A stretch of DNA of 64,000 bases from Chloroflexota bacterium (GCA_019873685.1 JAIOAT010000001.1:324298-388297), one strand, 5' to 3'. Shown: positions 5,876 through 46,051, numbered from the stretch's first letter. The notes: generated by a model not told the origin, from the sequence alone. Program-made: numbers and translations.

Positions 5876-5948
5876 GCCACCGTAGCTCAATCGGCAGAGC
5901 AGGCGCTTCGTAAGCGTCAGGTTATCGGTTCAACTCCGATCGGTGGCT
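5876..5948 (+). tRNA. tRNA-Thr (anticodon CGU)
   Basis: Hand-folded 73-nt cloverleaf. Acceptor GCCACCG/CGGTGGC, D arm GCTC..GAGC, anticodon arm GGCGC-TTCGTAA-GCGTC, T arm ATCGG-TTCAACT-CCGAT. CCA is not encoded. Confidence 0.9.
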
Positions 5949-6047
5949 CACTGGATGCCCGTCACGATAGTTGATGCGGGCATTTTTCATATCACGCCCG
6001 GCCACCCCGTAGTCAATGTTGCCCTGCCCGCAACTGGAGTCCAGTCT

Positions 6048-24070: not shown

Positions 24071-24221
24071 ACAAATAAGAGCCAAAAAATCGCTCAATAC
24101 GTTCTGGTAATCCCTGTTCAGGGGCCATGTCGATGACTTGGCGCCCGTTTTCCTTGACAGTGTGCCGCCTTCTATGCTACCATGCGCGGCAGTTACCAAT
24201 CGAATATTCAGAAACGGAACA

Positions 24222-24410
24222 CTCATCCAGAGCGGTGGAGGGAACGGCCCTGTGAAACCGCGGCAACCCCTGTTGAGCTGGTAACTACCAGTCTCAGGGA
24301 AGGTGCCAATTCCGACAGATTTCAAGATTGAAATCTGGGAGATGAGAGCAAGTCTGTGAATCATCCCGCCTGCAGGCAAGCTCCCTCTGGATCAGAGGGA
24401 GCTTGTTTTT
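24222..24410 (+). promoter_or_regulatory. SAM-I (S-box) riboswitch with terminator
   Basis: CUCAUCCAGAGCGGUGGAGGGAACGGCCCUGUGAAACCGCGGCAACC ... AAGGUGCCAAUUCC ... GGGAGAUGAGAG matches the S-box core, with P1 CUCAUC/GAUGAG. Terminator AAGCUCCCUCUG/CAGAGGGAGCUU plus U-run at 24378-24410. Candidate promoter TTGACA (24154) and TACCAT (24178). Confidence 0.88.
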
Positions 24411-33444: not shown

Positions 33445-34923
33445 CTAGATGCCCATCCACCACATGCGGCGTTCCAGTTTGTCGCCAACCACCTGCATGA
33501 CCAGGATCAGGAGCGTCCGGGTCACAATCACAGCCGTGAACAGATTCAGTACCAGGCCCAGCGCCAGTGTAATAGCAAAGCCACGTACCGACCCGGCGCC
33601 GAACGTGGAACCAAACAGGTACAGAATGACGCAGATGATAATTGTGGACAGGTTCGAATCGCGGATTGAGGTCCAGGCGCGATCAAAGCCTGCCTGCACA
33701 GCGATATTAAGCTGCCGTCCCTTACGCAGTTCTTCCTTGATTCGCTCGAAAATCAGGATGTTACCGTCTACCGCCGTGCCTACTGAAATCAGGAAGCCTG
33801 TGATCGCTGGCAGAGTCAGCGTTACCGGGATGAACTTGAAGAGGGCGATGTTCATGATCCCGAACAGCAGCAGTGCGATATCTGCCGTGATGCCAGGTAC
33901 CCGGTAGTACACGAGCATGAACACCAGTACCGTGATCACACCCAGAATACCTGCGCGGATGCTGCGATCGATGGACACGCGTCCCAGGGTTGGCCCGACA
34001 CTTTCCACGCTTTCTACACGCAGAGGCACAGGCAGCGCACCATAACGGAGTTGAACTGCCAGTTGCTGCGCTTCGTCCTGCGTAAAGGCGCCGGAGATCG
34101 TCCCGCCGTCGGTCAGTGCATCCCTGATCACCGGCGCAGAGATCACCACCCCATCCAGCACAATAGCCAGTGGCTGGCCGATATGCCGGGCTGTAAAGTC
34201 GCCGAAGATTTCCGCACCACGCTCATTCAGGGTGAAGTTGACCACCCATTCCGTACCTAGTCGATCGACCTGAGCGATGGCTGACTGCAGTCCTGCGCCG
34301 GTCATCACGGTCACAAACGGCTGTCCGGTGCGCGGATTCACGATCGGTGCATTCTCGTCAGTGGTTCCAGTGTTTTCTGGTTGTGGCGTAGCAGGTGTAG
34401 CAGTGGGCAATTGTTCCCCTGGTGCCGTGGTCGGCTGTGCTTGCTGCCGCGCGGCCTGCTGCTCAAGCTGGGCCGTTGTGAGAATCCGAGCGCCGTACAG
34501 ATGGCTCACATCTCCAAGCCCGGAAAAGTCCACGAATTCCAGCAGGCCCGTTTCGCGAATGGTCGCGATGGCGGTCTCAGGATCGGAGATTCCCGGTAGC
34601 TCAACGACGATCCGGTTCGCTCCCTCCTGAAGCTGGATTACCGGCTCGACCACGCCGAGCGCGTTGACGCGATTCTCAACAATTCGCCGGGCGGTTTCCA
34701 TGTCACCAGCAGTGATCTGATCCGCAGGCAGGTCTGCCGCCAGTAACACGCGCAGACCGCCCTGCAGGTCCAGACCAGGGCGGATGGCAATAGTGCGGGC
34801 GATCTCTGCCTTGCCATCATTGTTCAGGTCAAGATAGATTCCCGGGTTGTCGGGCAGCACCATCCAGATCGATGCCACGGCAACCACTATGGTCACGATC
34901 AGCCACCGAATATGACCGCTCAT
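33445..34923 (-). CDS. secD: Protein translocase subunit SecD
   Basis: GLDLQGG motif, periplasmic P1 domain, C-terminal TM bundle with LTLPAITGFLISVGTAVDGNILIFERIKEE. Confidence 0.94.
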   Translation of the reverse strand: MSGHIRWLIVTIVVAVASIWMVLPDNPGIYLDLNNDGKAEIARTIAIRPGLDLQGGLRVLLAADLPADQITAGDMETARRIVENRVNALGVVEPVIQLQEGANRIVVELPGISDPETAIATIRETGLLEFVDFSGLGDVSHLYGARILTTAQLEQQAARQQAQPTTAPGEQLPTATPATPQPENTGTTDENAPIVNPRTGQPFVTVMTGAGLQSAIAQVDRLGTEWVVNFTLNERGAEIFGDFTARHIGQPLAIVLDGVVISAPVIRDALTDGGTISGAFTQDEAQQLAVQLRYGALPVPLRVESVESVGPTLGRVSIDRSIRAGILGVITVLVFMLVYYRVPGITADIALLLFGIMNIALFKFIPVTLTLPAITGFLISVGTAVDGNILIFERIKEELRKGRQLNIAVQAGFDRAWTSIRDSNLSTIIICVILYLFGSTFGAGSVRGFAITLALGLVLNLFTAVIVTRTLLILVMQVVGDKLERRMWWMGI

Positions 34924-35037
34924 AGGCGAATTCCCTTCAGTCTGCTTGGCACAGGGATTGACCGGATGCAGGCACCATAAGCCGGCTTCCCAGCGGAGCC
35001 GGCACCCGCAACATCATAACGCTGCGGCTAACCAGTG

Positions 35038-35376
35038 TCAACGACTGCTTCGGTCTTCGGCTGTTCCCGCCCCATCTCCTATACCGATGCGTGCGTTGTG
35101 GGCCAGCGTGGCCGGGTCATATGGTTGTGTCAGCGCAGCAGTAATGATCCTTACTTCGACACCGTCCGCCAGCCGGATAGTCGCCTCACCAAGGTCGGGC
35201 TGTAAGTCGACGATGGTGGCGATCAGACCGCCGTAAGTGATCACTCTGTCGCCAGGCTTCAGCCGCCGAACGAAATATTGGTGCTTCTTGAATTCCTGCT
35301 GCCTGGGCAGAATCACCAGCGACCAGTAAGCCGCCAGAACCAGCAACAGCACAACAAGTGTGGCGATAAGCTCCAT
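35038..35376 (-). CDS. yajC: Preprotein translocase subunit YajC
   Basis: Single TM, then LKPGDRVITYGGLIATIVDL. Lies upstream of secD. Confidence 0.85.
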   Translation of the reverse strand: MELIATLVVLLLVLAAYWSLVILPRQQEFKKHQYFVRRLKPGDRVITYGGLIATIVDLQPDLGEATIRLADGVEVRIITAALTQPYDPATLAHNARIGIGDGAGTAEDRSSR

Positions 35377-35567
35377 GAAAGGCCGCCTCTCATTCTCGCT
35401 TTCTGACTCACCGGGCGCGACCGATTATAGCCGCCGCACCGTTGCGTGCCTACATACCGTTGCAGGAGCGCCCTGCTCTATGGTACAACATCCCCGCTGT
35501 ATCTTACGGCCTGCTGCCATGCGTACAGACAGCGATGTAATCACCGTGACCACGACAAGGAGCTTTC

Positions 35568-36305
35568 ATGCGCGTCATTATCAATCAGAAGAAAGTTCGC
35601 CGTAATCGCCGGCTGGCTCAGTATGCTTTCTTTGGCACACTGGCGCTGCTTATTCTGGGCCTGTTTGTGACCAATATTGCGCCCACGAATCCGCTGTTCC
35701 TGCTGGCACCTTTGCTGGTCTTGCCGGTGGCCTTTGGCGCTACGCTGTACTCGGTCCGCATGGCTAATCTGTGGCTGCGCGAACCACGTCCGGAGGCTGT
35801 GCTTGCCACCAGCCTCAAGGGCTTGAGCACGCGCTCGACTATCTACCACTATACCCTTCCCGCTCGTCACGTCCTGGTCTCACCGCAGGGGGTCTTTTGC
35901 TTTATCCTGCGTCCTCAAGATGGCAGTTATGTCATCAATGGGAATCGCTGGTCAAAGAAAGGGAGCTTCCTGAGTAAGTTCCTGACGTTCTTCCGCCAGG
36001 ATACCATCGGACGCCCTGACCTTGAGGCGTTACGGGAAGCAGCGGCGCTTCAGCGACTCATTGATCAGGTCGCCCCTGAGAGTGGTGTGCGTGTTGAGCC
36101 GGTGATCATCTTCAGCAGCCCGAATGTCAGCCTGGAAGTCGTTCAGTCGGATATCCCGGTGCTCTACGGCGATCCGCGTCAGAAGCCTAACCTCAAGACG
36201 TTCCTGCGCGATCGCAAGAAACAGGGAGAGGTAGCCACGCTGACGGATGAGCAGATTGCCGCCCTGGAAGCCGCTGTTGGGGTGGATGTTGTGGAGCAGG
36301 CATGA
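35568..36305 (+). CDS. Two-TM membrane protein with a possible NERD-like domain
   Basis: Two N-terminal TM helices. The segment YHYTLPARHVLVSPQGVFCFILRPQDG resembles the NERD core. The stop overlaps the next start (ATGA). Confidence 0.55.
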   Translation: MRVIINQKKVRRNRRLAQYAFFGTLALLILGLFVTNIAPTNPLFLLAPLLVLPVAFGATLYSVRMANLWLREPRPEAVLATSLKGLSTRSTIYHYTLPARHVLVSPQGVFCFILRPQDGSYVINGNRWSKKGSFLSKFLTFFRQDTIGRPDLEALREAAALQRLIDQVAPESGVRVEPVIIFSSPNVSLEVVQSDIPVLYGDPRQKPNLKTFLRDRKKQGEVATLTDEQIAALEAAVGVDVVEQA

Positions 36306-38164
36306 CTCTTGGCCGCCAGCCGCCATGGCCCGTGTTGATCGCAATCTTCTTACTGGCGTTTGCGTTGCGCCTGTGGCAACTGGACGCCAGTCCCCTGCGA
36401 GGCGATGAGGCTTTTGCGATCCAGTACTGGGCTGCACCCTGGCCGGACGGCCTGGCCCTGACCCGAGTGGAACCACACCCGTATGGCACGTTCGCCATCT
36501 TCGCCCTCTGGAAGGGCCTGTTGGGTGATGGCGAATGGGTGATGCGCCTGCTCCCAGCCCTGGGAAACCTGCCAGGGCTGGCCGCGGCATATGTGATGGG
36601 CAGACGTCTGTTCCATGATCGGCGAGCCGGGCTGCTGGCGACCTTCCTGTACGCAATTCACCCCCATCTGATCTGGCATGCTCAGGATGTTCGAAACTAT
36701 GCACTCTGGGCAGCCGCAACGCCTGTGTCTGTCGCGGCGCTTCTGATAGCCCTGGATCATGATCGCTTGCGCAACTGGGTGCGTTATGGTGCCGCAGCGG
36801 CCCTGAGCGTCTATATCTTCTTCTTTGCCCTGTTTTTCCTGGCGGCCCACGGGGTCTATGTGGCGCTATTCAGACGCGCTCGCCTGCGGCACTGGGTGAT
36901 GACTGTCCTTGGTGTAGCGGTGCTGCTTGTGCCGCTGGCTGTGCAGGTCCTGACGATTGTGCGCGAGGGGCAGTATACGGGTACGGCAGGGGGCTTTGTC
37001 TTTTCGCAGCTATGGACGTGGTTTCTGCCTACTCTTGCTGTCGGTGATACGTTGCCTGCCGGTTTGACGGCATGGCTGTGGGCGTCGCTGGTGATTGTCA
37101 TGGTCGTCGGGCTGTATGGTTTGTGGCGTTCGCGGCGCTATGTGAATGCGGCGGGATACCTCGCCACTGAGTTTGTGGTACCGGTGATATTGCTGGGACT
37201 GGTCTGTCTGCGGATGGATGTCTTCCGCCCACGGTACCTGTTGCCGCTGACGGCCGATCTGGTCCTACTGCTGGCGGGTACGCTGTTTGTCATGCTGACG
37301 GTACGGGAAAAGCATCTCAAGTCACTGGGATATGTCGTTACAGTAGCTATCCTGCTGCTTGATGGCTGGGCACTGGTCAATTACCATGCCGACCCGGCCT
37401 ATGCCAAAGCGCCAGACTGGCGAACCCTGGGCGCTTTCATGACCGCCGAAACCCGGCCTGATGAACTGGTGATCCAGCAGGCCCTTGATCCTGCATTCAC
37501 GTATTATTTTCGCGGACCGGCTGACGAGACCACCCTTCCCCTGCGCGCCAATGCTCCCGTGGAGGAAACAATCGCCTATCTGGAAGATGCACGGCAACGT
37601 TACACGCGGTTGTGGTTGATTCCCGCTGATCTCCCTTACTACGACGCGGAACATGTTCCGTTGACGTGGCTGACTGAGGAGATGCAGCCCATCGCCGATC
37701 TGTCCGTTGCTGGCTTTCGCGTTCTGCAATTTCAGTCCTGGGATGTCGCCGACTCTGAATACACCCGCCGCGCAAATGTCCGGTTTGCCGATGTTGGCAC
37801 TCTGCTCGATTGGCGGGTCGACCGGCTGGGTAAGGGGATACTGAGACTGACGGTATACTGGGAACCAACGGGCAGGCAAACCAGCGCATTGACAGGGTTC
37901 GCCCACCTGGTAGGACCGCCGCATCCGGATACCGGTCTACCGCTTTGGGCACAGGAGGATCACCCCCTGACCACTACCCATTGGCAGATCGGTCATGTAC
38001 GACGGGATGTTTACCTTCTGCCCCTGCCAGATACTCTGCCGCCTGGTGACTGGCAGTTACATGTCGGTCTCTATGATCCTGCCACCCTAGAACGTGTACT
38101 GGCTGGTGCGGATGACCACTTCACAATCGAGTTGGGCGTTGATCCACTGGCGAACATCCCATAG
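36302..38164 (+). CDS. GT-C fold (GT39/ArnT-like, PMT_2) glycosyltransferase with a C-terminal beta-rich domain
   Basis: Polytopic N-terminus whose first loop reads LRLWQLDASPLRGDEAF (DE motif). C-terminal soluble domain ends HVGLYDPATLERV. Confidence 0.8.
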   Translation: MTLGRQPPWPVLIAIFLLAFALRLWQLDASPLRGDEAFAIQYWAAPWPDGLALTRVEPHPYGTFAIFALWKGLLGDGEWVMRLLPALGNLPGLAAAYVMGRRLFHDRRAGLLATFLYAIHPHLIWHAQDVRNYALWAAATPVSVAALLIALDHDRLRNWVRYGAAAALSVYIFFFALFFLAAHGVYVALFRRARLRHWVMTVLGVAVLLVPLAVQVLTIVREGQYTGTAGGFVFSQLWTWFLPTLAVGDTLPAGLTAWLWASLVIVMVVGLYGLWRSRRYVNAAGYLATEFVVPVILLGLVCLRMDVFRPRYLLPLTADLVLLLAGTLFVMLTVREKHLKSLGYVVTVAILLLDGWALVNYHADPAYAKAPDWRTLGAFMTAETRPDELVIQQALDPAFTYYFRGPADETTLPLRANAPVEETIAYLEDARQRYTRLWLIPADLPYYDAEHVPLTWLTEEMQPIADLSVAGFRVLQFQSWDVADSEYTRRANVRFADVGTLLDWRVDRLGKGILRLTVYWEPTGRQTSALTGFAHLVGPPHPDTGLPLWAQEDHPLTTTHWQIGHVRRDVYLLPLPDTLPPGDWQLHVGLYDPATLERVLAGADDHFTIELGVDPLANIP

Positions 38165-38170
38165 AGACGG

Positions 38171-38194
38171 CAAAAGGGCTGCCGAAGCAGCCCT
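38171..38194 (-). terminator. Intrinsic terminator of the SPFH operon
   Basis: On the minus strand: AGGGCUGC-UUCG-GCAGCCCU followed by UUUUG. Confidence 0.75.
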
Positions 38195-38238
38195 GCATAT
38201 AGCGCGGCGTATCTGGCCAGAGTCAAACCATCTCGCAA

Positions 38239-39288
38239 TTAGCCGTTGAGCCTGGCCTGCCACTTGGCCACAAGGCTCTTGTACACCTCTTCGCTGATCT
38301 CACCGTTAGCGAACCGCATATCCAGATTGTCCAGGATCGCCTGAATCTGTTCGCGAGTCTGTGGCGCAGCGGTTTGCTGCACATTCTGCTGCATCATTTG
38401 CATCATCATCTGCTGCATCATCATCTGTTGCTGTTGAAGTTGCTGCTGCAGGGCGGCCTGCTCCGGGTTGAGCGTTGCGCCGATGCTCTGCCCGACTCCC
38501 AGCCCCACCCCGGCTCCGGCCAGCGCACCACCCGCGCCGGTATTCTGGGCGGCGGCCTGAGCGATGTCCAGCCGACGAACGCGCTCATACGCCTCAATGC
38601 TCATGTAATTGCGCAGTTCATCAAGCGTAGCTTCCTTGGCCGTGAACGGCTTGATCTCAATAGCCTTGAAGCGCATTCCCAGCGCGCCGAACTTCTCGTT
38701 CAGGCGGGCCATCAGTGCGCCTTCAAGATCGTTGAGCAACTGGTTGACCTCGGGGACGCTGGTCACATCGGCGCTGCCAATCAGAGTGGTAATCTCACCC
38801 AGAAGCATCGATTGCAGCCGATCCTTGATGTCCGGGATGCGCAGGATAGGCTTGCCAATCGCATACTGGCGCACAAAGCGCACCGGATCGTCAATGCCAA
38901 TATCCATCACCCCGTGGGTTACCAGCAGGACAACGCCCATGCCTTTTCCCGGCGTCTCCATCACAATCGGTGGATTCGTCCCCCAGGGCACCTGTGGCAG
39001 GTCTTTTTGATTCACAAAATAGAGATCAGCGGTGAAGGGGTTACGCCCGCCGGTGACCATGCCGATCAGGCTGGACAGAATCGGCAGGTTGGCTGTAGAG
39101 AGTGTATGGTTGCCTGGTCCAAGTGCATCCAGGACTTCCCCCTGGCGCACAAAGACCGCCGCCTGGCTTTCCTGAACGATCACCTGCGACCCCATCCGCC
39201 AGTCACCGCCGCCAGCCTGCGGTTCGCGGTACGTTAGCTCGTCATCCATCACATTGACATGGTCAATGACATCAATAATCCGCGCCAT
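38239..39288 (-). CDS. YdjI-like SPFH/Band-7 protein with a Q/M-rich linker and C-terminal SHOCT
   Basis: N-terminal two thirds match the Band_7_1-type pattern (VIVQESQAAVFVRQGEVLDALGPGNHTLSTANLPIL). Low-complexity QQQLQQQQMMMQQMMMQMMQQ. SHOCT-like tail GEISEEVYKSLVAKWQARL. SD AAGGAG. Confidence 0.8.
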   Translation of the reverse strand: MARIIDVIDHVNVMDDELTYREPQAGGGDWRMGSQVIVQESQAAVFVRQGEVLDALGPGNHTLSTANLPILSSLIGMVTGGRNPFTADLYFVNQKDLPQVPWGTNPPIVMETPGKGMGVVLLVTHGVMDIGIDDPVRFVRQYAIGKPILRIPDIKDRLQSMLLGEITTLIGSADVTSVPEVNQLLNDLEGALMARLNEKFGALGMRFKAIEIKPFTAKEATLDELRNYMSIEAYERVRRLDIAQAAAQNTGAGGALAGAGVGLGVGQSIGATLNPEQAALQQQLQQQQMMMQQMMMQMMQQNVQQTAAPQTREQIQAILDNLDMRFANGEISEEVYKSLVAKWQARLNG

Positions 39289-39337
39289 CGGTTGTTGTCT
39301 CCTTGTCTGAAATCTCTGAATCTCTACCAGAAATCGG

Positions 39338-39871
39338 CTAAGCCAGACCGTTGATCACATCGCGGCGCAGGTCAAAGGCATGAGCTGCTTCATCCACAAC
39401 AGCTCGCAATTCGGCCAGCACTCCGGTGATGTCGGCGTTTGTTCTGGCTGCCTCTACGAACTTGTCGACGACGGCCGTAATCTGATCCACGTACCGTAGC
39501 ATGGCTTCATCAAAGGCAAAAACATCAGCCAGTTGCTCATGGCTGATCTTCAGCGCACCGGTGAACGCATACCCCGGTGCTGCTGTGCCAATACGGTCTG
39601 CCAGAGTCTGCAGTCGATCCTTCTCTGCCCGCGTCTTGCTCATCATCCGCAGCCCGCCGCTGTCAAGAATGAGGTTTTCCGCGTCGGCCATACGGACTAC
39701 CTGGGCGCGAAGCTGGCTGGCAATGTGCTCGCGCACAATGCGGTCAGCGTCACGCTGGGCGCTCATGTCGAAGTAACTCTCAATGTGCTTACCAAGCAAT
39801 GGGATGCGCGATACCAGGTTCTCAAAGGACCCGCGCTGGTTCACAATACGGTCATACAGATTGCTGCTCAT
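39338..39871 (-). CDS. Hypothetical soluble, probably all-helical protein, 177 aa
   Basis: ATG preceded by GAGGAG. No TM segment and no motif I can assign. Embedded in the operon. Confidence 0.6.
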   Translation of the reverse strand: MSSNLYDRIVNQRGSFENLVSRIPLLGKHIESYFDMSAQRDADRIVREHIASQLRAQVVRMADAENLILDSGGLRMMSKTRAEKDRLQTLADRIGTAAPGYAFTGALKISHEQLADVFAFDEAMLRYVDQITAVVDKFVEAARTNADITGVLAELRAVVDEAAHAFDLRRDVINGLA

Positions 39872-39992
39872 CGCTGTTCTATCTCCTCAGGGCTGCCCCT
39901 ATTTACACAGAGTCTGACCGGCGCAGAGTCCCCTGTACCTCAAGCATACAACAGAGTACCAGCCGGAACAATCGCGGTGCCTGGCCGCAGCC

Positions 39993-40514
39993 CTAGCTAA
40001 GAAAATACTCGGTGCCGCAGAACCGGCACGACAGTACACCCTTGCCAGTCAGTGTGATTTCGCCGCCGCAGTTTTCACAGCGCTTCAGCTCGCGTAGTTC
40101 GCGCGCCTCGCTAGAGTACAGAATCCCCTTCTCCCAGTTGATGTAGCCGCTGAACACCTGCAAGCCCACCAGCCGGTGCACCAGCGCCCTGATCTCCTCC
40201 TGGCTAACCTGCATTTCGAGCGCCAAATCTCGGACATCAACCTGACCGCGGCTGCGCACAATGTCGAGTAACTGCCGTTGCTTACCAGCTTCAGCAAGCC
40301 GCGCCGCCTCGCGATTACCCTGCACCACCATGAAGATGCCAAAACCTACCAGCGGTGCCACCAGTACAACAAAGGCAATACCCAGACCAAGGATCGCGCC
40401 TGAGGTCGTCAGGCTGCCACTGCTGACGCCGCTAAAAAGAAAGGCTGTCACGATGAGTGCAATGACCAGCCCCACTGCGATCAGAACGATGCCGACCACC
40501 CGTCCGCTACCCAC
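39993..40514 (-). CDS. Two-TM protein with a winged-helix-like segment and C-terminal Zn ribbon, 173 aa
   Basis: GTG start after AGGAGG. Two TM helices, LLDIVRSRGQVDVRDLALEMQVSQEEIRALVHRL, and CENC-x13-CRFC. Confidence 0.65.
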   Translation of the reverse strand: MGSGRVVGIVLIAVGLVIALIVTAFLFSGVSSGSLTTSGAILGLGIAFVVLVAPLVGFGIFMVVQGNREAARLAEAGKQRQLLDIVRSRGQVDVRDLALEMQVSQEEIRALVHRLVGLQVFSGYINWEKGILYSSEARELRELKRCENCGGEITLTGKGVLSCRFCGTEYFLS

Positions 40515-40550
40515 CAGTCTCCTCCTTTTGTCCCGGTTATCCCACCCGGC

Positions 40551-42470
40551 TTAGCCAAAGCCAGCGCTGCCACCACCACCGCCACCGCCGCCACCGCTGA
40601 ACCCGCCACTGAAGCCCCCTCCCCCACCGCCGGAGGAAGACGGACGGCTCACCAGCGTTGAAGAGGCGTTGTTCAGCATGGTGAACAGACCGGCTGACAT
40701 CGCGTTCAATCCGGTGTTCAGGTTGGAAGCCATACCATCCAGCGAACCGCCGGGCCGTGCTAGCTGGCTTCGGATGTCCGGGCTGCGCATGTCGACCAGT
40801 GGTTCTCCGAAGGTGTAACCCCGTACCCACGGCCCGCCCACATATCGCGGGTAGTACCAGTAAGGAATCGGGGTGGACTCGATCCGGGAAAACTGGTTGA
40901 CCCATGTTCGTTCCAGACCAAACGCGATGGCGTACGGCAGGTAATCGTTGAACTGATCAGTGGCCGCTTCAATGTCTGCGTACTGGCGCACGTTCTGCAA
41001 GTAGTTCCTGAACGCCCGCCATTTTGCCGCTTCCTCCGCTCCTTTGGCTGTCTTGGCGGGCATGCGCGGCCCGGCGATCATCATCACTACCCCTACCAGG
41101 CCCAGTGCGATGGGCAGGCAGATCACCCCTTCTGGCAGGCCGATCGCCATCTCCGCGCCGAAGGCGGCCATCACGAAAGGTGCGCCGAACGCGGCGATGG
41201 CGACCAGCGCGCCTCCGAGGCCGATCCAGCGCCGACGAACGCTCTGCGGGTTGGCGTCAAAGAATCCCTCCTTCACCACTTCATCGTAGATCTGGTTCTG
41301 AATCGTTGGGATGTGGGTGTAGAATTTGTTCTTTAGCGCCTCCATCTCGACGGCATCTTTGCGGCCAAAGAGCTTGTTGAGCAGAGTCAATTCGTAGCGG
41401 CGCAGGCTATCGGTGAGGGGTTTGGCAGTGCGCTTGAAAGTGAACGTCGTTCGGCTGCCAATCCCCAGAATACCAGGGTTTCGCTCCTCCTCAATAACCA
41501 GATATCCCCGGCGCGCCAGGTCGATGATGGTTGAGAGCACATCGCGCAGTTCGGCGCTCTCATCGATCAGCGTCCCGGCTACAGCCGGGGGAAGATCAGA
41601 CGGAGGTTCGGTCAGATATTCCGGCGCGACACCCACTTCAGGATCACGCCCACGCGACCACCAGCGGTAATAGGTGAATGCTACACCGGCAATAGCCAAT
41701 ACTATTGAACCGCTGCCCAGCAAGAGATTCAGGATAGGATAAAGCGTAGCCTGTCGGTCAAATGCGGCCTGCCAATCGGCGACCCGCCCGGCAGGGTTAT
41801 GCGGGAACTGCACCCGTACTTCCAGCGCCTCGTTGGCGGCAATCTGGCGTGTGGCACGGAATGTAACCACATTGCCATTGCGGCTGATCTCTGCTGGTGC
41901 ACCATAGGCCGCCACCGGGTCTGTGTCGCGCGGCGTATAGGCTTCAGGCAGCCGGACTGTCACTGTCGCACTCTGGATCGGGTAGGCATGATCCGGGGCA
42001 ATAGCGAACCAGTCGATCTGATCGCCCCCCTCATAATAGAACAGCGGGCCACTTACGTCATAGCTAATGGTGAACACACGCTGTTCGCTCTGAGCAGGCC
42101 GGAGGAAGTAGTAAACAATCCGCAACTCCCGTCCATCATCAGTCACGCAGTAGGTGCCTGCTCTTTCTGCACATCCCGGCTGCAGCGGTGTCCCGCCCTC
42201 TGCCACCCGCACGTTGGTGATCCGTTCTAGGCGGTCGGCAACCGGGATCGCCCGAAAACCGTATCGGAAACTTCCACCAATGAATTGAATATCATGCACC
42301 TCGGTGACGCTAAAGCGGTTGGCAGTTGTGTCTACGTTGTCGATCGTGACGTCCCACCGGCGCCAGTATAGCGATCGGCTCTGGGCGCGTGCCGCCGCGA
42401 CCGTGCCCAGCAAAACTACTCCGATAACCCACAGCGCAGCCACAAGCCACAGCCGGCGTCTTGTGATCAT
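40551..42470 (-). CDS. DUF2207-family polytopic membrane protein with a Gly-rich C-terminal tail
   Basis: Signal/anchor, extracytoplasmic N-domain, TM, cytoplasmic middle domain, further TMs. Tail SSSGGGGGGFSGGFSGGGGGGGGGSAGFG, typical of DUF2207. Confidence 0.8.
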   Translation of the reverse strand: MITRRRLWLVAALWVIGVVLLGTVAAARAQSRSLYWRRWDVTIDNVDTTANRFSVTEVHDIQFIGGSFRYGFRAIPVADRLERITNVRVAEGGTPLQPGCAERAGTYCVTDDGRELRIVYYFLRPAQSEQRVFTISYDVSGPLFYYEGGDQIDWFAIAPDHAYPIQSATVTVRLPEAYTPRDTDPVAAYGAPAEISRNGNVVTFRATRQIAANEALEVRVQFPHNPAGRVADWQAAFDRQATLYPILNLLLGSGSIVLAIAGVAFTYYRWWSRGRDPEVGVAPEYLTEPPSDLPPAVAGTLIDESAELRDVLSTIIDLARRGYLVIEEERNPGILGIGSRTTFTFKRTAKPLTDSLRRYELTLLNKLFGRKDAVEMEALKNKFYTHIPTIQNQIYDEVVKEGFFDANPQSVRRRWIGLGGALVAIAAFGAPFVMAAFGAEMAIGLPEGVICLPIALGLVGVVMMIAGPRMPAKTAKGAEEAAKWRAFRNYLQNVRQYADIEAATDQFNDYLPYAIAFGLERTWVNQFSRIESTPIPYWYYPRYVGGPWVRGYTFGEPLVDMRSPDIRSQLARPGGSLDGMASNLNTGLNAMSAGLFTMLNNASSTLVSRPSSSGGGGGGFSGGFSGGGGGGGGGSAGFG

Positions 42471-42881: not shown

Positions 42882-42957
42882 CCTGAGTATCGTGTTGTTA
42901 GGCAAGGGAGTCTGTGCGTATGCTCAGGAAGCCTTGCCTGACCGCAAGGCTCTTTTT
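42882..42957 (+). promoter_or_regulatory. Attenuator-like leader: terminator hairpin with a competing upstream helix, before the sigma gene
   Basis: Terminator GCCUUGC-n6-GCAAGGC (42931-42950) plus a U-rich run (42951-42965). Segment 42932-42942 can instead pair with 42897-42907 (11 bp including one G-U). Confidence 0.5.
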
Positions 42958-42998
42958 CTGTGTTTTCGGAACCCTGATAGGCAACTGACCCTCACGCT

Positions 42999-44213
42999 AT
43001 GACGGTGACAGAAGCAACCCGCGATCCCATTCTCGACCTGCTGCTCTCACAGGGAGACAAGCAGGGATACCTGACCTACGACGACATTCTGGCGGTTCTC
43101 CCACCGGAGCACCAGGATGATGTCTCCAGACTTGATGAGATTCTGGAACTCCTGGCAGAGTCCGGCATTTCCGTTCTCTCAGAACCGCCTGGAGACGAGC
43201 AATTTGCCAGGCAACTCGGCGATGTCACCGGCACGGCTGACCTCACCGCCGTTGAGGAATTTGACCTGCGAGACGACGCGGGCTACCAGCAGGCTCTGGA
43301 GACCGATGATGTCGTCGGCCTTTACCTTAAGGAAGCCGGGCGGGTCCCTCTGCTGACTGCTGAGCAGGAGGTTGCCCTGGCGCGGCGGATTGAATCGGCG
43401 ACCCTGGCCAGAGAGCAACTTGAGGAATATGGCGACTCGCTCGATCCGGATACCCGTTACGAGCTTGAGAGGATCATTGCCGACGGCGAGGAGGCGCAGG
43501 AGCATCTCATCAGGGCTAATGCCAGGCTGGTCGTCAGCATCGCTAAGAAGTACGTTGGGCGTGGTGTGGCATTCCTGGACCTGATTCAAGAAGGTAACAT
43601 CGGCCTGATCCGCGCTGTGCGCAAGTTCGAATACCGACGCGGTCACAAGTTCAGCACCTATGCGACCTGGTGGATCCGGCAGGCGGTCAGCCGGGCGGTT
43701 GCCGATCAGGGCCGCACGATCCGCGTGCCGGTGCACATGGGCGACCAGATCAACCGGCTGCTGCGTGTGTCGGCGTTGCTTGCGCAGCAACTGGGCCGCG
43801 ATCCGACCATTGAGGAACTGGCTGAAGCGATGGAGACGGAGCCAGAGCGTGTCTCGGAACTCATGGAAATCTCCCGCCGTCCGGTCAGCCTGGACGAGCC
43901 AACCAACGATGAGCAGGATGCCGAGATCGGGGACTTCATCGAGGATATCTCATCCCCTTCCCCACCCCAGATCGTGGCCGATCAGCTGTTGCGCCAGCAG
44001 GTGAACGAGTTGCTTAACCGTCTGCCGGAACGCGAGGCTTACATCCTGAAGCTGCGCTATGGCCTCTTGGATGGCCGGGTGCATACCCTGGAAGAGGTTG
44101 GGCAGGAGATCGGGGTAACCCGCGAACGGGTGCGCCAGCTGGAAGCCCAAGCGCTCAACCGGCTGCGTCACTCGTCTGCACTGATGTTGCGTGACTACCT
44201 GGTTGAGGATTGA
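42999..44213 (+). CDS. rpoD: Primary (group 1) RNA polymerase sigma factor
   Basis: Region 1.1 at the N-terminus, region 2 ([35 protein letters not shown]), region 3, and region 4.2 ([24 protein letters not shown]). Confidence 0.93.
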
Positions 44214-44227
44214 CAAGGAGGGGGCAA

Positions 44228-45019
44228 GTGGAAAGACGCGCTGCCCGGCAAAACCTGTCATTCTGGGTCTGGCCGCTGGTGCTGGTCGTTGCTGGCATCC
44301 TGCTACTTCTGCGCAATTACCTGTTGCTGGATTTTGACGTGTGGCAGCTGTGGCCGCTCGTGTTGATTATTCTGGGGATTCAGATTGCCCTGGCGGGCGA
44401 ACCGGGCAACCGGGCTGCGCAGAGCTTTCGGGTTTCTCGCGGCAGTGTTGAAGCGGCCACATTGCAGGCCAGCAGCGGTGATGTGGACATCCACCTGAAT
44501 GCTCTAGAAGGGCAGGAAGGCCGTTTGATTGCCGGTCAATATACGGCTAACTCGCGCCCGGAATTGGCAACCCAGGGTAATCGGGCAATTATCACCATGC
44601 AGCGCGGAAAGACATGGTTCCTCTCGCTGGCGGACTGGGAAATTGAACTCGCTACAGACCTGCCATGGGAGATTCTGGCAAGCACCCACCTTGGCGAGAT
44701 CAGCGGCGATCTGCGCGGGCTGATCATTGATCGGGCGCACTTCGCGACTGGTTTGGGTGATATTCGTCTGATCGCCCCTGATAGACCCGCTGGCCCCCTG
44801 GTCTTCCGCTCAACACTGGGTAACATTCACCTGACCGTACCTGCTGATATGGAAGCCAGCCTGACGATCCAGGCTGGCCCTCTATTCACTGTCAAGATTG
44901 AAGATCCACGATGGCGCTCAGATGGCAATCGCCATTATGTGACTGCCGGCTACACAGGCGCTGTCGAGCCACTTGAGCTGATTGTCGGTGGAACCTTCGG
45001 CGGCCTGACTCTGAGCTGA
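44228..45019 (+). CDS. LiaF-like membrane protein (LiaI-LiaF-type TM pair plus toastrack/DUF4097-like domain)
   Basis: N-terminal WVWPLVLVVAGILLLLRN...LWPLVLIILGIQIAL. Repetitive beta-strand region with GDVDIHLNA, GDIRLIAPD, GNIHLTVPADMEASL. GTG at 44228 after AAGGAGGGGG. The ORF opens at 44210, overlapping the rpoD stop. Confidence 0.7.
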   Translation: MERRAARQNLSFWVWPLVLVVAGILLLLRNYLLLDFDVWQLWPLVLIILGIQIALAGEPGNRAAQSFRVSRGSVEAATLQASSGDVDIHLNALEGQEGRLIAGQYTANSRPELATQGNRAIITMQRGKTWFLSLADWEIELATDLPWEILASTHLGEISGDLRGLIIDRAHFATGLGDIRLIAPDRPAGPLVFRSTLGNIHLTVPADMEASLTIQAGPLFTVKIEDPRWRSDGNRHYVTAGYTGAVEPLELIVGGTFGGLTLS

Positions 45020-45932: not shown

Positions 45933-45961
45933 TTGTCAATCCGCCTGCCATTCGCTATACT
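45933..45961 (+). promoter_or_regulatory. Promoter of tRNA-Cys
   Basis: TTGTCA (45933-45938), 17-nt spacer, TATACT (45956-45961). Confidence 0.55.
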
Positions 45962-45972
45962 ATCGTTTACCT

Positions 45973-46043
45973 GGCGACGTCGCCAAGTGGCAAGGCAAGG
46001 GTCTGCAAAACCCTCATCGTCGGTTCGATTCCGACCGTCGCCT
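45973..46043 (+). tRNA. tRNA-Cys (anticodon GCA)
   Basis: Hand-folded 71-nt cloverleaf. Acceptor GGCGACG/CGTCGCC, anticodon arm AGGGT-CTGCAAA-ACCCT, T arm GTCGG-TTCGATT-CCGAC. A13:A22 mismatch and U73 discriminator, as known for bacterial tRNA-Cys. Confidence 0.9.
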
Positions 46044-46051
46044 CCTGGGTT

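Follow-up and report, generated by a model that had tools for sequence, protein, structure and literature searches.

Four neighboring genes on the minus strand of a 64,000-nucleotide (nt) stretch of DNA from a Chloroflexota bacterium (GCA_019873685.1, JAIOAT010000001.1:324298-388297; the whole of this stretch is called the window below) encode, in the order A-B-C-D, a DUF2207 membrane protein (A), a small membrane protein with a winged helix and a zinc ribbon (B), a soluble helical protein (C) and a soluble SPFH protein of the type of YdjI from Bacillus subtilis (D). We find that the locus consists of two separable gene pairs, A-B and C-D, and that C belongs to a large family whose gene is followed by that of an SPFH protein in nearly all of the loci examined. 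By analogy with known membrane-stress systems, we think it fairly probable that the locus is a variant, lacking PspA, of the YdjI/PspA-type membrane-scaffold (envelope-maintenance) module, in which C would serve the SPFH protein as adaptor or regulator.

C and D form the core pair. Related loci were taken from three sources, namely genomes at one per species (n = 53, of which 52 bear the label of Chloroflexota or of a class within it and 1 that of Oceanobacillus sp.), metagenome contigs (n = 80) scanned with an alignment of 12 distant C sequences, and individual protein look-ups. The open reading frames (ORFs) in these loci were classed by jackhmmer searches seeded with the window proteins, counts were made only where the flanking sequence was sufficient, and D was scored as following C when a Band_7_1 gene lay on the same strand within 400 nt. 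On this basis D follows C in 117 of 121 loci (48/48 in genomes, 64/67 in metagenomes and 5/6 in the first contig look-ups), and the pairing holds where C is 22–28% identical to the window protein. It is also found in a metagenome-assembled genome (MAG) labelled Eremiobacterota and in a contig whose C clusters with a protein from a Bacillota-labelled MAG, and in distant loci the gap from C to D is 0–6 nt.

The preliminary description of the locus, which was made from the sequence by inspection, could assign C, a 177-residue and apparently all-helical protein, to no family, and this still stands: C has no Pfam family, 50 diverse members of the family that we define here share no consistent Pfam match, and no characterized family is matched with confidence. 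A sequence search returned 45 close homologues, and the profile built from these matched 1636 cluster representatives at E ≤ 1e-3 (989 at E ≤ 1e-10) among 1.84 billion proteins, the clusters, about 1,600 in all, being drawn at 50% identity. Members are mostly 170–180 residues long, and those with named sources come from Chloroflexota, a Bacillota MAG, a Planctomycetota MAG, Candidatus Eremiobacteraeota and Candidatus Riflebacteria. The sole name that the family bears is taken from a Leptospira locus tag, and the one paper found to cite that tag names no gene products. C matches the NCBIfam model NF047596 ('LIMLP_15305 family') with an E value of 2e-7 and 31.1 bits, residues 4–172 aligning to profile positions 6–172 of 175, and the same Leptospira-derived model is matched by 50/50 diverse family members, at best with 3.6e-21; because the match of C is full-length but scores below the equivalog cut-off of the model (210 bits), C is a homologue and not an equivalog.

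The AlphaFold2 (AF2) model of C (pLDDT 87, pTM 0.85) is all-helical, with helices at residues 36–70, 74–95, 111–144 and 148–173, and hydropathy reveals no hydrophobic segment. Six residues (R40, D43, R47, G100, D121 and R169) are invariant throughout the family and, judged from the order of the helices rather than from coordinates, would all lie at one pole of the up-down-up-down bundle. Such a protein is neither PspAA, which combines three helices with a sheet of four strands, nor CesT/Tir, a distinct chaperone domain, since C is all-alpha. In Chloroflexia MAGs some C proteins (P0103, P0106, P0124, P0161, P0163 and P0189) carry disordered tails of 150–280 residues, which are rich in Pro, Gly, Ser and Thr and are without a Pfam domain.

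Fusions and variants of the C-D pair connect it with the PspA network and tell more than the other evidence. Two unrelated contigs (L143 and L144) have the order [C::DUF4178]-PspA_IM30-Band_7_1, in which C is fused to DUF4178, and Pfam confirms both PspA (2.5e-50) and Band_7_1 (2.5e-65) in clusters of this type. A third contig (L059) has DUF4178-DUF350-Spermine_synth and two small genes, then C-D. Genes for DUF4178, DUF350 and spermine synthase are known to surround CesT/Tir-PspA dyads, and a described variant has a band-7/SHOCT protein in place of the dyad (PMC11237479); the text of that paper, searched for helix-related wording, makes no mention of a helical-bundle partner of the C kind. One further locus encodes C with a Ser/Thr kinase (STK) joined to it on the N-terminal side, the order being A-B-[STK::C]-D-...-YajC-SecD. 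The link to the pspA-ydjGHI theme of B. subtilis that had been proposed for the window genes is borne out both by the [C::DUF4178]-PspA-Band_7_1 operons and by distant C-D pairs in which D combines the YdjI-type Band_7_1 domain with a zinc ribbon.

D had been described as a YdjI-like SPFH protein ending in a SHOCT motif. The first half of this is secure, with a match to Band_7_1 (PF13421) at 1.1e-35 and 123.7 bits (cut-off 24) over profile positions 10–196 of 211. The second half is weaker, as the match to SHOCT (PF09851) is below threshold (E = 0.069, 13.4 bits vs a cut-off of 27), though the tail motif GEISEExY...KW..RL is kept in several dozen orthologues. Between these ends lie a Gly-zipper segment and a Q/M-rich linker. 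The protein is soluble by hydropathy, no 19-residue window reaching a Kyte-Doolittle value of 1.6 (maximum 1.27), and for YdjI, too, solubility is described as likely (PMC8581546). Across the orthologues in the collected loci (L001–L145) the core of Band_7_1 and Gly-zipper is constant and is followed by one of three mutually unrelated small tail domains, SHOCT-like, HTH_17-like or a double zinc ribbon; most tails of the first two kinds went unrecognized in a classification by regular expression. The double zinc ribbon is the architecture of YdjI (PMC11237479). Window D, in which there are no CxxC pairs, has no such C-terminal ribbon, and zinc-ribbon tails are found on distant D partners of C.

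As to the other pair, A was described as a polytopic DUF2207 protein with a long Gly-rich tail, and the assignment is well founded: PF09972 (4.6e-15, 56.7 bits) and PF20990 (3.6e-43, 148.5 bits) both score above their Pfam cut-offs and the topology is polytopic. Hydropathy gives four hydrophobic segments (residues 5–30, 242–268, 415–441 and 441–470), so that an N-terminal signal or transmembrane (TM) segment is followed by an extracytoplasmic DUF2207_N domain, three more hydrophobic segments and the Gly-rich C-terminal tail, a Gly/Ser-rich tail being typical of the family (PMC10457818). Orthologues of A in related loci, where they lie upstream of B, are 43–67% identical to it.

For B the preliminary description, of two TM helices, a winged-helix-like segment and a CxxC-x13-CxxC ribbon, agrees with both hydropathy, which shows two hydrophobic helices, and the AF2 model (pLDDT 82.7), in which two TM helices and a long connecting helix lead to a winged helix and to a zinc ribbon of three strands formed around C146xxC149-x13-C163xxC166. 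The predicted location of the soluble part is the cytoplasm. There is no significant Pfam family for B, and neither TPM nor TF_Zn_Ribbon is matched by any of the four proteins. A Pfam match to PCI (PF01399) falls short of the cut-off (0.0018, 18.9 bits vs 22), one B homologue has a precomputed PCI match, and the best Foldseek matches are PCI subunits, namely CSN2 and those of the proteasome lid (Rpn), with E values of 0.01–0.1; the fold matches, to PCI winged helices, thus agree with the Pfam match, all of them being weak. We found 688 homologues of B, and all named ones are from Chloroflexota. Among the 120 listed, identity to window B is 57–96% and nearly all are 170–173 residues long, and a 26-sequence alignment contains 46 invariant columns, mostly in the soluble part.

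The four genes were originally taken for one fixed unit. The four families do co-occur elsewhere, with A-B-C-D in 18 of 44 genome loci and in 5 of 35 metagenome loci, but the unit is not fixed. The other 26 genome loci have C-D only, and B-C-D, A-C-D and C alone do not occur among the 44; in the metagenomes there are 24 loci with C-D only, 4 with B-C-D, 1 scored as A-C-D and 1 with C alone. Divergent lineages repeatedly show B-C-D with no A (identity 32% for B and 28% for C), and the genes upstream of C-D-only loci are mostly divergent and unrelated. The cultured Aggregatilinea lenta has an A-B pair (43% and 57% identity) without C-D; the genes that come next encode an M23 peptidase and a PrsW protease. 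From the C-D-only loci and this A-B pair without C-D it follows that the cluster is made of two separable dyads, and its conservation ranks as C-D >> B-C-D > A-B-C-D. In two metagenome A-B-C-D loci a small nucleotidyltransferase ORF (NTP_transf_2, ~3e-7) stands between B and C (L069, 2426–2839; L071, 3278–3823).

All four ORFs are present and co-directional in the window, with lengths and domains as first described (Table 1), and ORF calling gives gaps of 36 nt (A-B), 121 nt (B-C, 39872–39992) and 49 nt (C-D). The National Center for Biotechnology Information (NCBI) names for near-identical proteins are 'hypothetical', 'hypothetical' and 'SPFH domain-containing'. That the genes form a single operon is not established, for the B-C gap, in which an internal promoter had been allowed for, contains a conserved sigma-70-like candidate, the -10 hexamer of which has its first base 77 nt before the start codon of C. 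A TTGTnn-N17-(TG)TATGCT motif occurs 36–102 nt upstream of C in 30/53 genome loci compared with 5/2720 shuffles. In the clade of the window it is found in 4/5 A-B-C-D loci by one scoring and 5/5 by another, and it occurs in C-D-only loci as well; 13 A-B-C-D loci of a different clade lack it. The tRNA-Cys gene of the window (45973–46045, plus strand) has TTGTCA-N17-TATACT 12 nt upstream (45933–46045 for both together), a promoter of the same type as that before C. C-D here therefore probably has a housekeeping-type promoter and transcript of its own. Because there is no convincing terminator after B, read-through from A-B into C-D is possible. Upstream of A only a weak TGGACA-16-TACATT site was found, at ~345 nt, and neither the A leader nor the B-C gap gave an Rfam match at E ≤ 1 to a riboswitch or other known RNA.

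Table 1. Features of the A-B-C-D locus, with positions counted from the first nucleotide of the window
Feature	Position	Strand	Basis
Gene A, DUF2207 polytopic membrane protein, 639 aa	40551-42470	-	ORF, Pfam and hydropathy
Gene B, two TM helices, PCI-like winged helix and zinc ribbon, 173 aa	39993-40514	-	ORF and AF2
Promoter candidate TTGTTC-N17-(TG)TATGCT in the B-C gap	39943-39971	-	exact motif match
Gene C, soluble four-helix bundle, 177 aa	39338-39871	-	ORF and AF2
Gene D, soluble YdjI/SamI-type SPFH protein, 349 aa	38239-39288	-	ORF and Pfam PF13421
Putative intrinsic terminator, 8-bp GC-rich stem, UUCG loop, UUUG tail	38171-38194	-	centroid fold

The translation and termination signals are less uniform than was at first supposed. 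A strong Shine-Dalgarno sequence of its own had been claimed for each gene, which is right for B (AGGAGG with a 6-nt spacer) and overstated for the rest: C (GAGGAG) and D (AAGGAG) have good cores with spacers of 10–11 nt, and the purine run GAGAGGG of A stops only 2 nt before the ATG. The UUCG-loop hairpin said to close the set exists (AGGGCUGC-UUCG-GCAGCCCU at 38175-38194, beginning 44 nt past the D stop codon, with a centroid fold of -16.1 kcal/mol), but it is followed by no more than UUUG, and with so short a T-run it was not called in the terminator scan. Another terminator-like hairpin with a T-rich tail (40012-40029, minus strand) lies in the last codons of B (encoding CRFCGTEYFLS), just before the internal promoter, and is probably a by-product of the CxxC and YFLS codons.

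That A-B and C-D are functionally unrelated modules, one an independent DUF2207 membrane pair and the other a self-contained SPFH pair, which happen to be neighbors in some Anaerolineae, is in our judgment rather unlikely, though it is the most probable of the alternatives. It would account for the frequency with which C-D stands alone in genomes and metagenomes alike, for the other genes that follow A-B in Aggregatilinea lenta, and for the promoter that C has kept for itself in the clade of the window. The flanking genes speak for it too: downstream of D (33445–38164) lie genes for a PMT_2 glycosyltransferase, a 245-residue protein with weak likeness to NERD, YajC and SecD, and this synteny block is kept across many Chloroflexota genomes, so that the adjacency of the pairs may simply be inherited. 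It accounts less well for the recurrence of B-C-D and A-B-C-D where C and B are only ~30% identical, with order and strand constant, for the kinase::C locus, which retains A-B immediately upstream, or for the 13 A-B-C-D loci of a different clade that lack the internal motif and have B-C gaps down to 7 nt.

Several of these facts also weigh against our own reading of the locus as one PspA-less scaffold module. The pairs are separable, and since much of the A-B-C-D co-occurrence lies within one phylum, with conserved flanking synteny, shared ancestry inflates the counts. C occurs without D in four loci. No PspA is present among the ORFs of the window in a jackhmmer search seeded with real PspA; C genes linked to PspA were found in two contigs only, both with DUF4178 fusions; and the structural matches of C, being to generic helical bundles only, give no functional hint.

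An improbable alternative makes B a membrane-tethered transcription regulator of the downstream C-D promoter, with A as its sensor. The winged helix and zinc ribbon of B, its extreme conservation and the position of its gene immediately upstream of a conserved promoter would suit such a role, as would weak matches to DNA-binding winged-helix families (Sul12a at 2.9e-5, and the Z-alpha domain). The best sequence and fold matches, weak as they all are, point instead to the protein-binding PCI type. C-D-only loci, where B is not a neighbor, keep the promoter just as well, and it is similar to the one of housekeeping type before tRNA-Cys. In Aggregatilinea lenta, B is not near C-D.

Less credible still is the proposal, which goes back to the preliminary description, that C stands in the place of an effector or scaffold, as a membrane-remodelling substitute for PspA in the form of a cryptic ESCRT-III/PspA-like or LemA-like protein. 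C is all-helical, of about the right size, and adjoins the SPFH gene. The absence of PspA and LemA from the set was noted correctly, in that Pfam gives no PspA_IM30 match and, at E ≤ 0.1, no LemA (PF04011) match for A to D, but by sequence and fold C does not fill their place: neither C nor 50 diverse members of its family match PspA_IM30, Snf7 or LemA, and a profile search of PDB sequences with C found nothing relevant. The comparison by AF2 and Foldseek that had been suggested for it gave no PDB match at E ≤ 1e-3, the top ones being IncA, V-ATPase c subunits and BAR domains, and PspA, Vipp1 and ESCRT-III are absent from the 50 matches listed. C lacks any amphipathic or hydrophobic segment, and where PspA does occur, in L143 and L144, it is a separate gene beside C. 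We therefore regard this proposal as largely refuted. SPFH proteins and zinc-ribbon membrane proteins occur in some defense loci, yet an anti-phage defense or mobile-element system can be set aside with near certainty, as PADLOC returned no significant family and only weak matches (a JetC-like coiled coil at 5e-4 for D and PDC-S64 at 0.05 for B), C homologues are absent from 72,556 plasmid and 50,697 phage records, and the housekeeping synteny beside yajC-secD is conserved across species.

The locus resembles several known systems, among them the pspA-ydjGHI (samGHI) operon. In B. subtilis the membrane proteins YdjG and YdjH have been shown experimentally to recruit the soluble YdjI, which in turn recruits PspA (PMC8581546), and SamGHI forms a membrane stress-sensor complex (preprint, bioRxiv 10.64898/2026.02.06.704340). 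The window locus likewise joins a soluble Band_7_1 SPFH protein to small membrane proteins, one of them with a zinc ribbon, and its division into membrane proteins (A and B) and proteins without TM segments (C and D) follows the logic of YdjG/H and YdjI (PMC8581546; bioRxiv 10.64898/2026.02.06.704340). The distant C-D pairs come nearer still, with the Band_7_1 domain and C-terminal zinc ribbon of YdjI, and those of L143 and L144 include PspA. The window cluster differs in that PspA is missing, as are proteins of the YdjH (TPM) and YdjG types; YdjG has two N-terminal zinc ribbons and an NTF2-like domain (PMC11237479), whereas B has two TM helices, a PCI-like winged helix and a single C-terminal zinc ribbon. 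Window D, moreover, ends in a SHOCT-like tail and not in a zinc ribbon, and C fits none of the operon's proteins, a comparison that was made with their published descriptions and not with the B. subtilis sequences.

The A-B pair invites comparison with another arrangement. DUF2207 proteins are found paired with LemA in gene pairs, and the window resembles these in that the DUF2207 protein is joined by a small protein which is anchored in the membrane and has a domain in the cytoplasm; the partner, however, is B, encoded downstream of A, and not LemA, which is also missing from three Pfam-annotated contexts of A orthologues. The C-D pair, for its part, recalls the NfeD-SPFH operons (YuaF-FloT, YqiJ-YqiK), in which an SPFH gene is tightly paired with a small dedicated partner immediately upstream. 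The SPFH partners in NfeD-type operons are membrane-anchored, whereas C and D are both soluble and C is a four-helix bundle without an NfeD match in Pfam. In published YqiJ/YuaF-band-7 operons, NfeD/YqiJ-type partners are membrane proteins with three TM helices (PMC11237479). With the CesT/Tir-PspA dyads (PMC11237479) the C-D pair shares a small cytosolic partner encoded just upstream of a membrane-scaffold protein, as well as the company of DUF4178, DUF350 and Spermine_synth in L059 and the fusion to DUF4178 in L143 and L144; it is set apart from them by the all-alpha fold of C, by a partner that is SPFH and not PspA, and by the lack of polyamine genes in the window.

The gene families, adjacency, fusions, PspA variants and promoter conservation are observed here, whereas every physical interaction of the products and their stress-related role are inferred. 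By analogy with B. subtilis, D would oligomerize at the inner face of the membrane, and C may bind to it, as its adaptor or its regulator, by way of the polar cluster of conserved Arg and Asp residues at one end of the bundle. C could in this way couple SPFH assembly to variable effectors, which would be PspA in some lineages and, where C is fused to one of these, the Ser/Thr kinase or DUF4178. A-B would be the lineage-specific membrane side, with the extracytoplasmic domain of A as a possible sensor and the cytoplasmic PCI-like winged helix and zinc ribbon of B as a docking surface, possibly for the SHOCT-like tail of D. A bolder version, which we put forward only tentatively, is that the C family defines an unrecognized two-gene system of several phyla, where soluble SPFH scaffolds of the YdjI type would depend on C as their obligate adaptor or gatekeeper; C would control SPFH assembly at the membrane and couple it to interchangeable outputs (PspA, kinase or DUF4178-polyamine), and A-B would be a Chloroflexota-specific transmembrane sensor-anchor; if true, this would provide the first mechanistic context for DUF2207.

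On the far side of A the window contains a gene for a LiaI-LiaF-TM protein (44210–45019, plus strand; 9e-11, with a weak toastrack match), whose start is overlapped by 4 nt by a sigma-70-family gene (42999–44213, plus strand). The overlap suggests that this pair is translationally coupled, and sigma/Toastrack pairing is a type of context mentioned in PMC11237479. The LiaF/toastrack gene that had been pointed out about 2 kb away is real, at 1.7 kb from A, but is not a conserved neighbor: LiaF-like and sigma genes are present in 0/53 related genome loci, so their proximity to A-D is probably incidental, and we exclude them as parts of the system. In the 528-nt divergent intergenic region, ~40 nt before the start of the sigma gene, there is a hairpin that, with its T-run, resembles a terminator (AGCCTTGCCTGACCGCAAGGCT CTTTTTCTGT; 42930-42961, plus strand); it is preceded by no plus-strand gene, is negative in Rfam, and may represent either an attenuator in the leader or the point where a small RNA ends. 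Elsewhere in the window, a T-box leader (2339–2573), a SAM riboswitch (24220–24348) and a tRNA-Thr gene (5876–5949), all on the plus strand, pass the Rfam gathering thresholds.

Bacteria depend centrally on SPFH proteins and PspA to maintain their membranes, and to our knowledge the recruitment and regulation of soluble YdjI-type SPFH proteins are known from one organism only. What is new here is a conserved partner family, absent from Pfam and not found in the comparative-genomics papers on the phage shock protein (PSP) system, that is found with this class of SPFH protein in ~97% of the loci studied and is thus a candidate for the missing adaptor or regulator. The operon model of the locus is corrected to one of two dyads with a conserved internal promoter, and DUF2207, a membrane family that is very widespread but has no known function, gains a candidate functional neighborhood.

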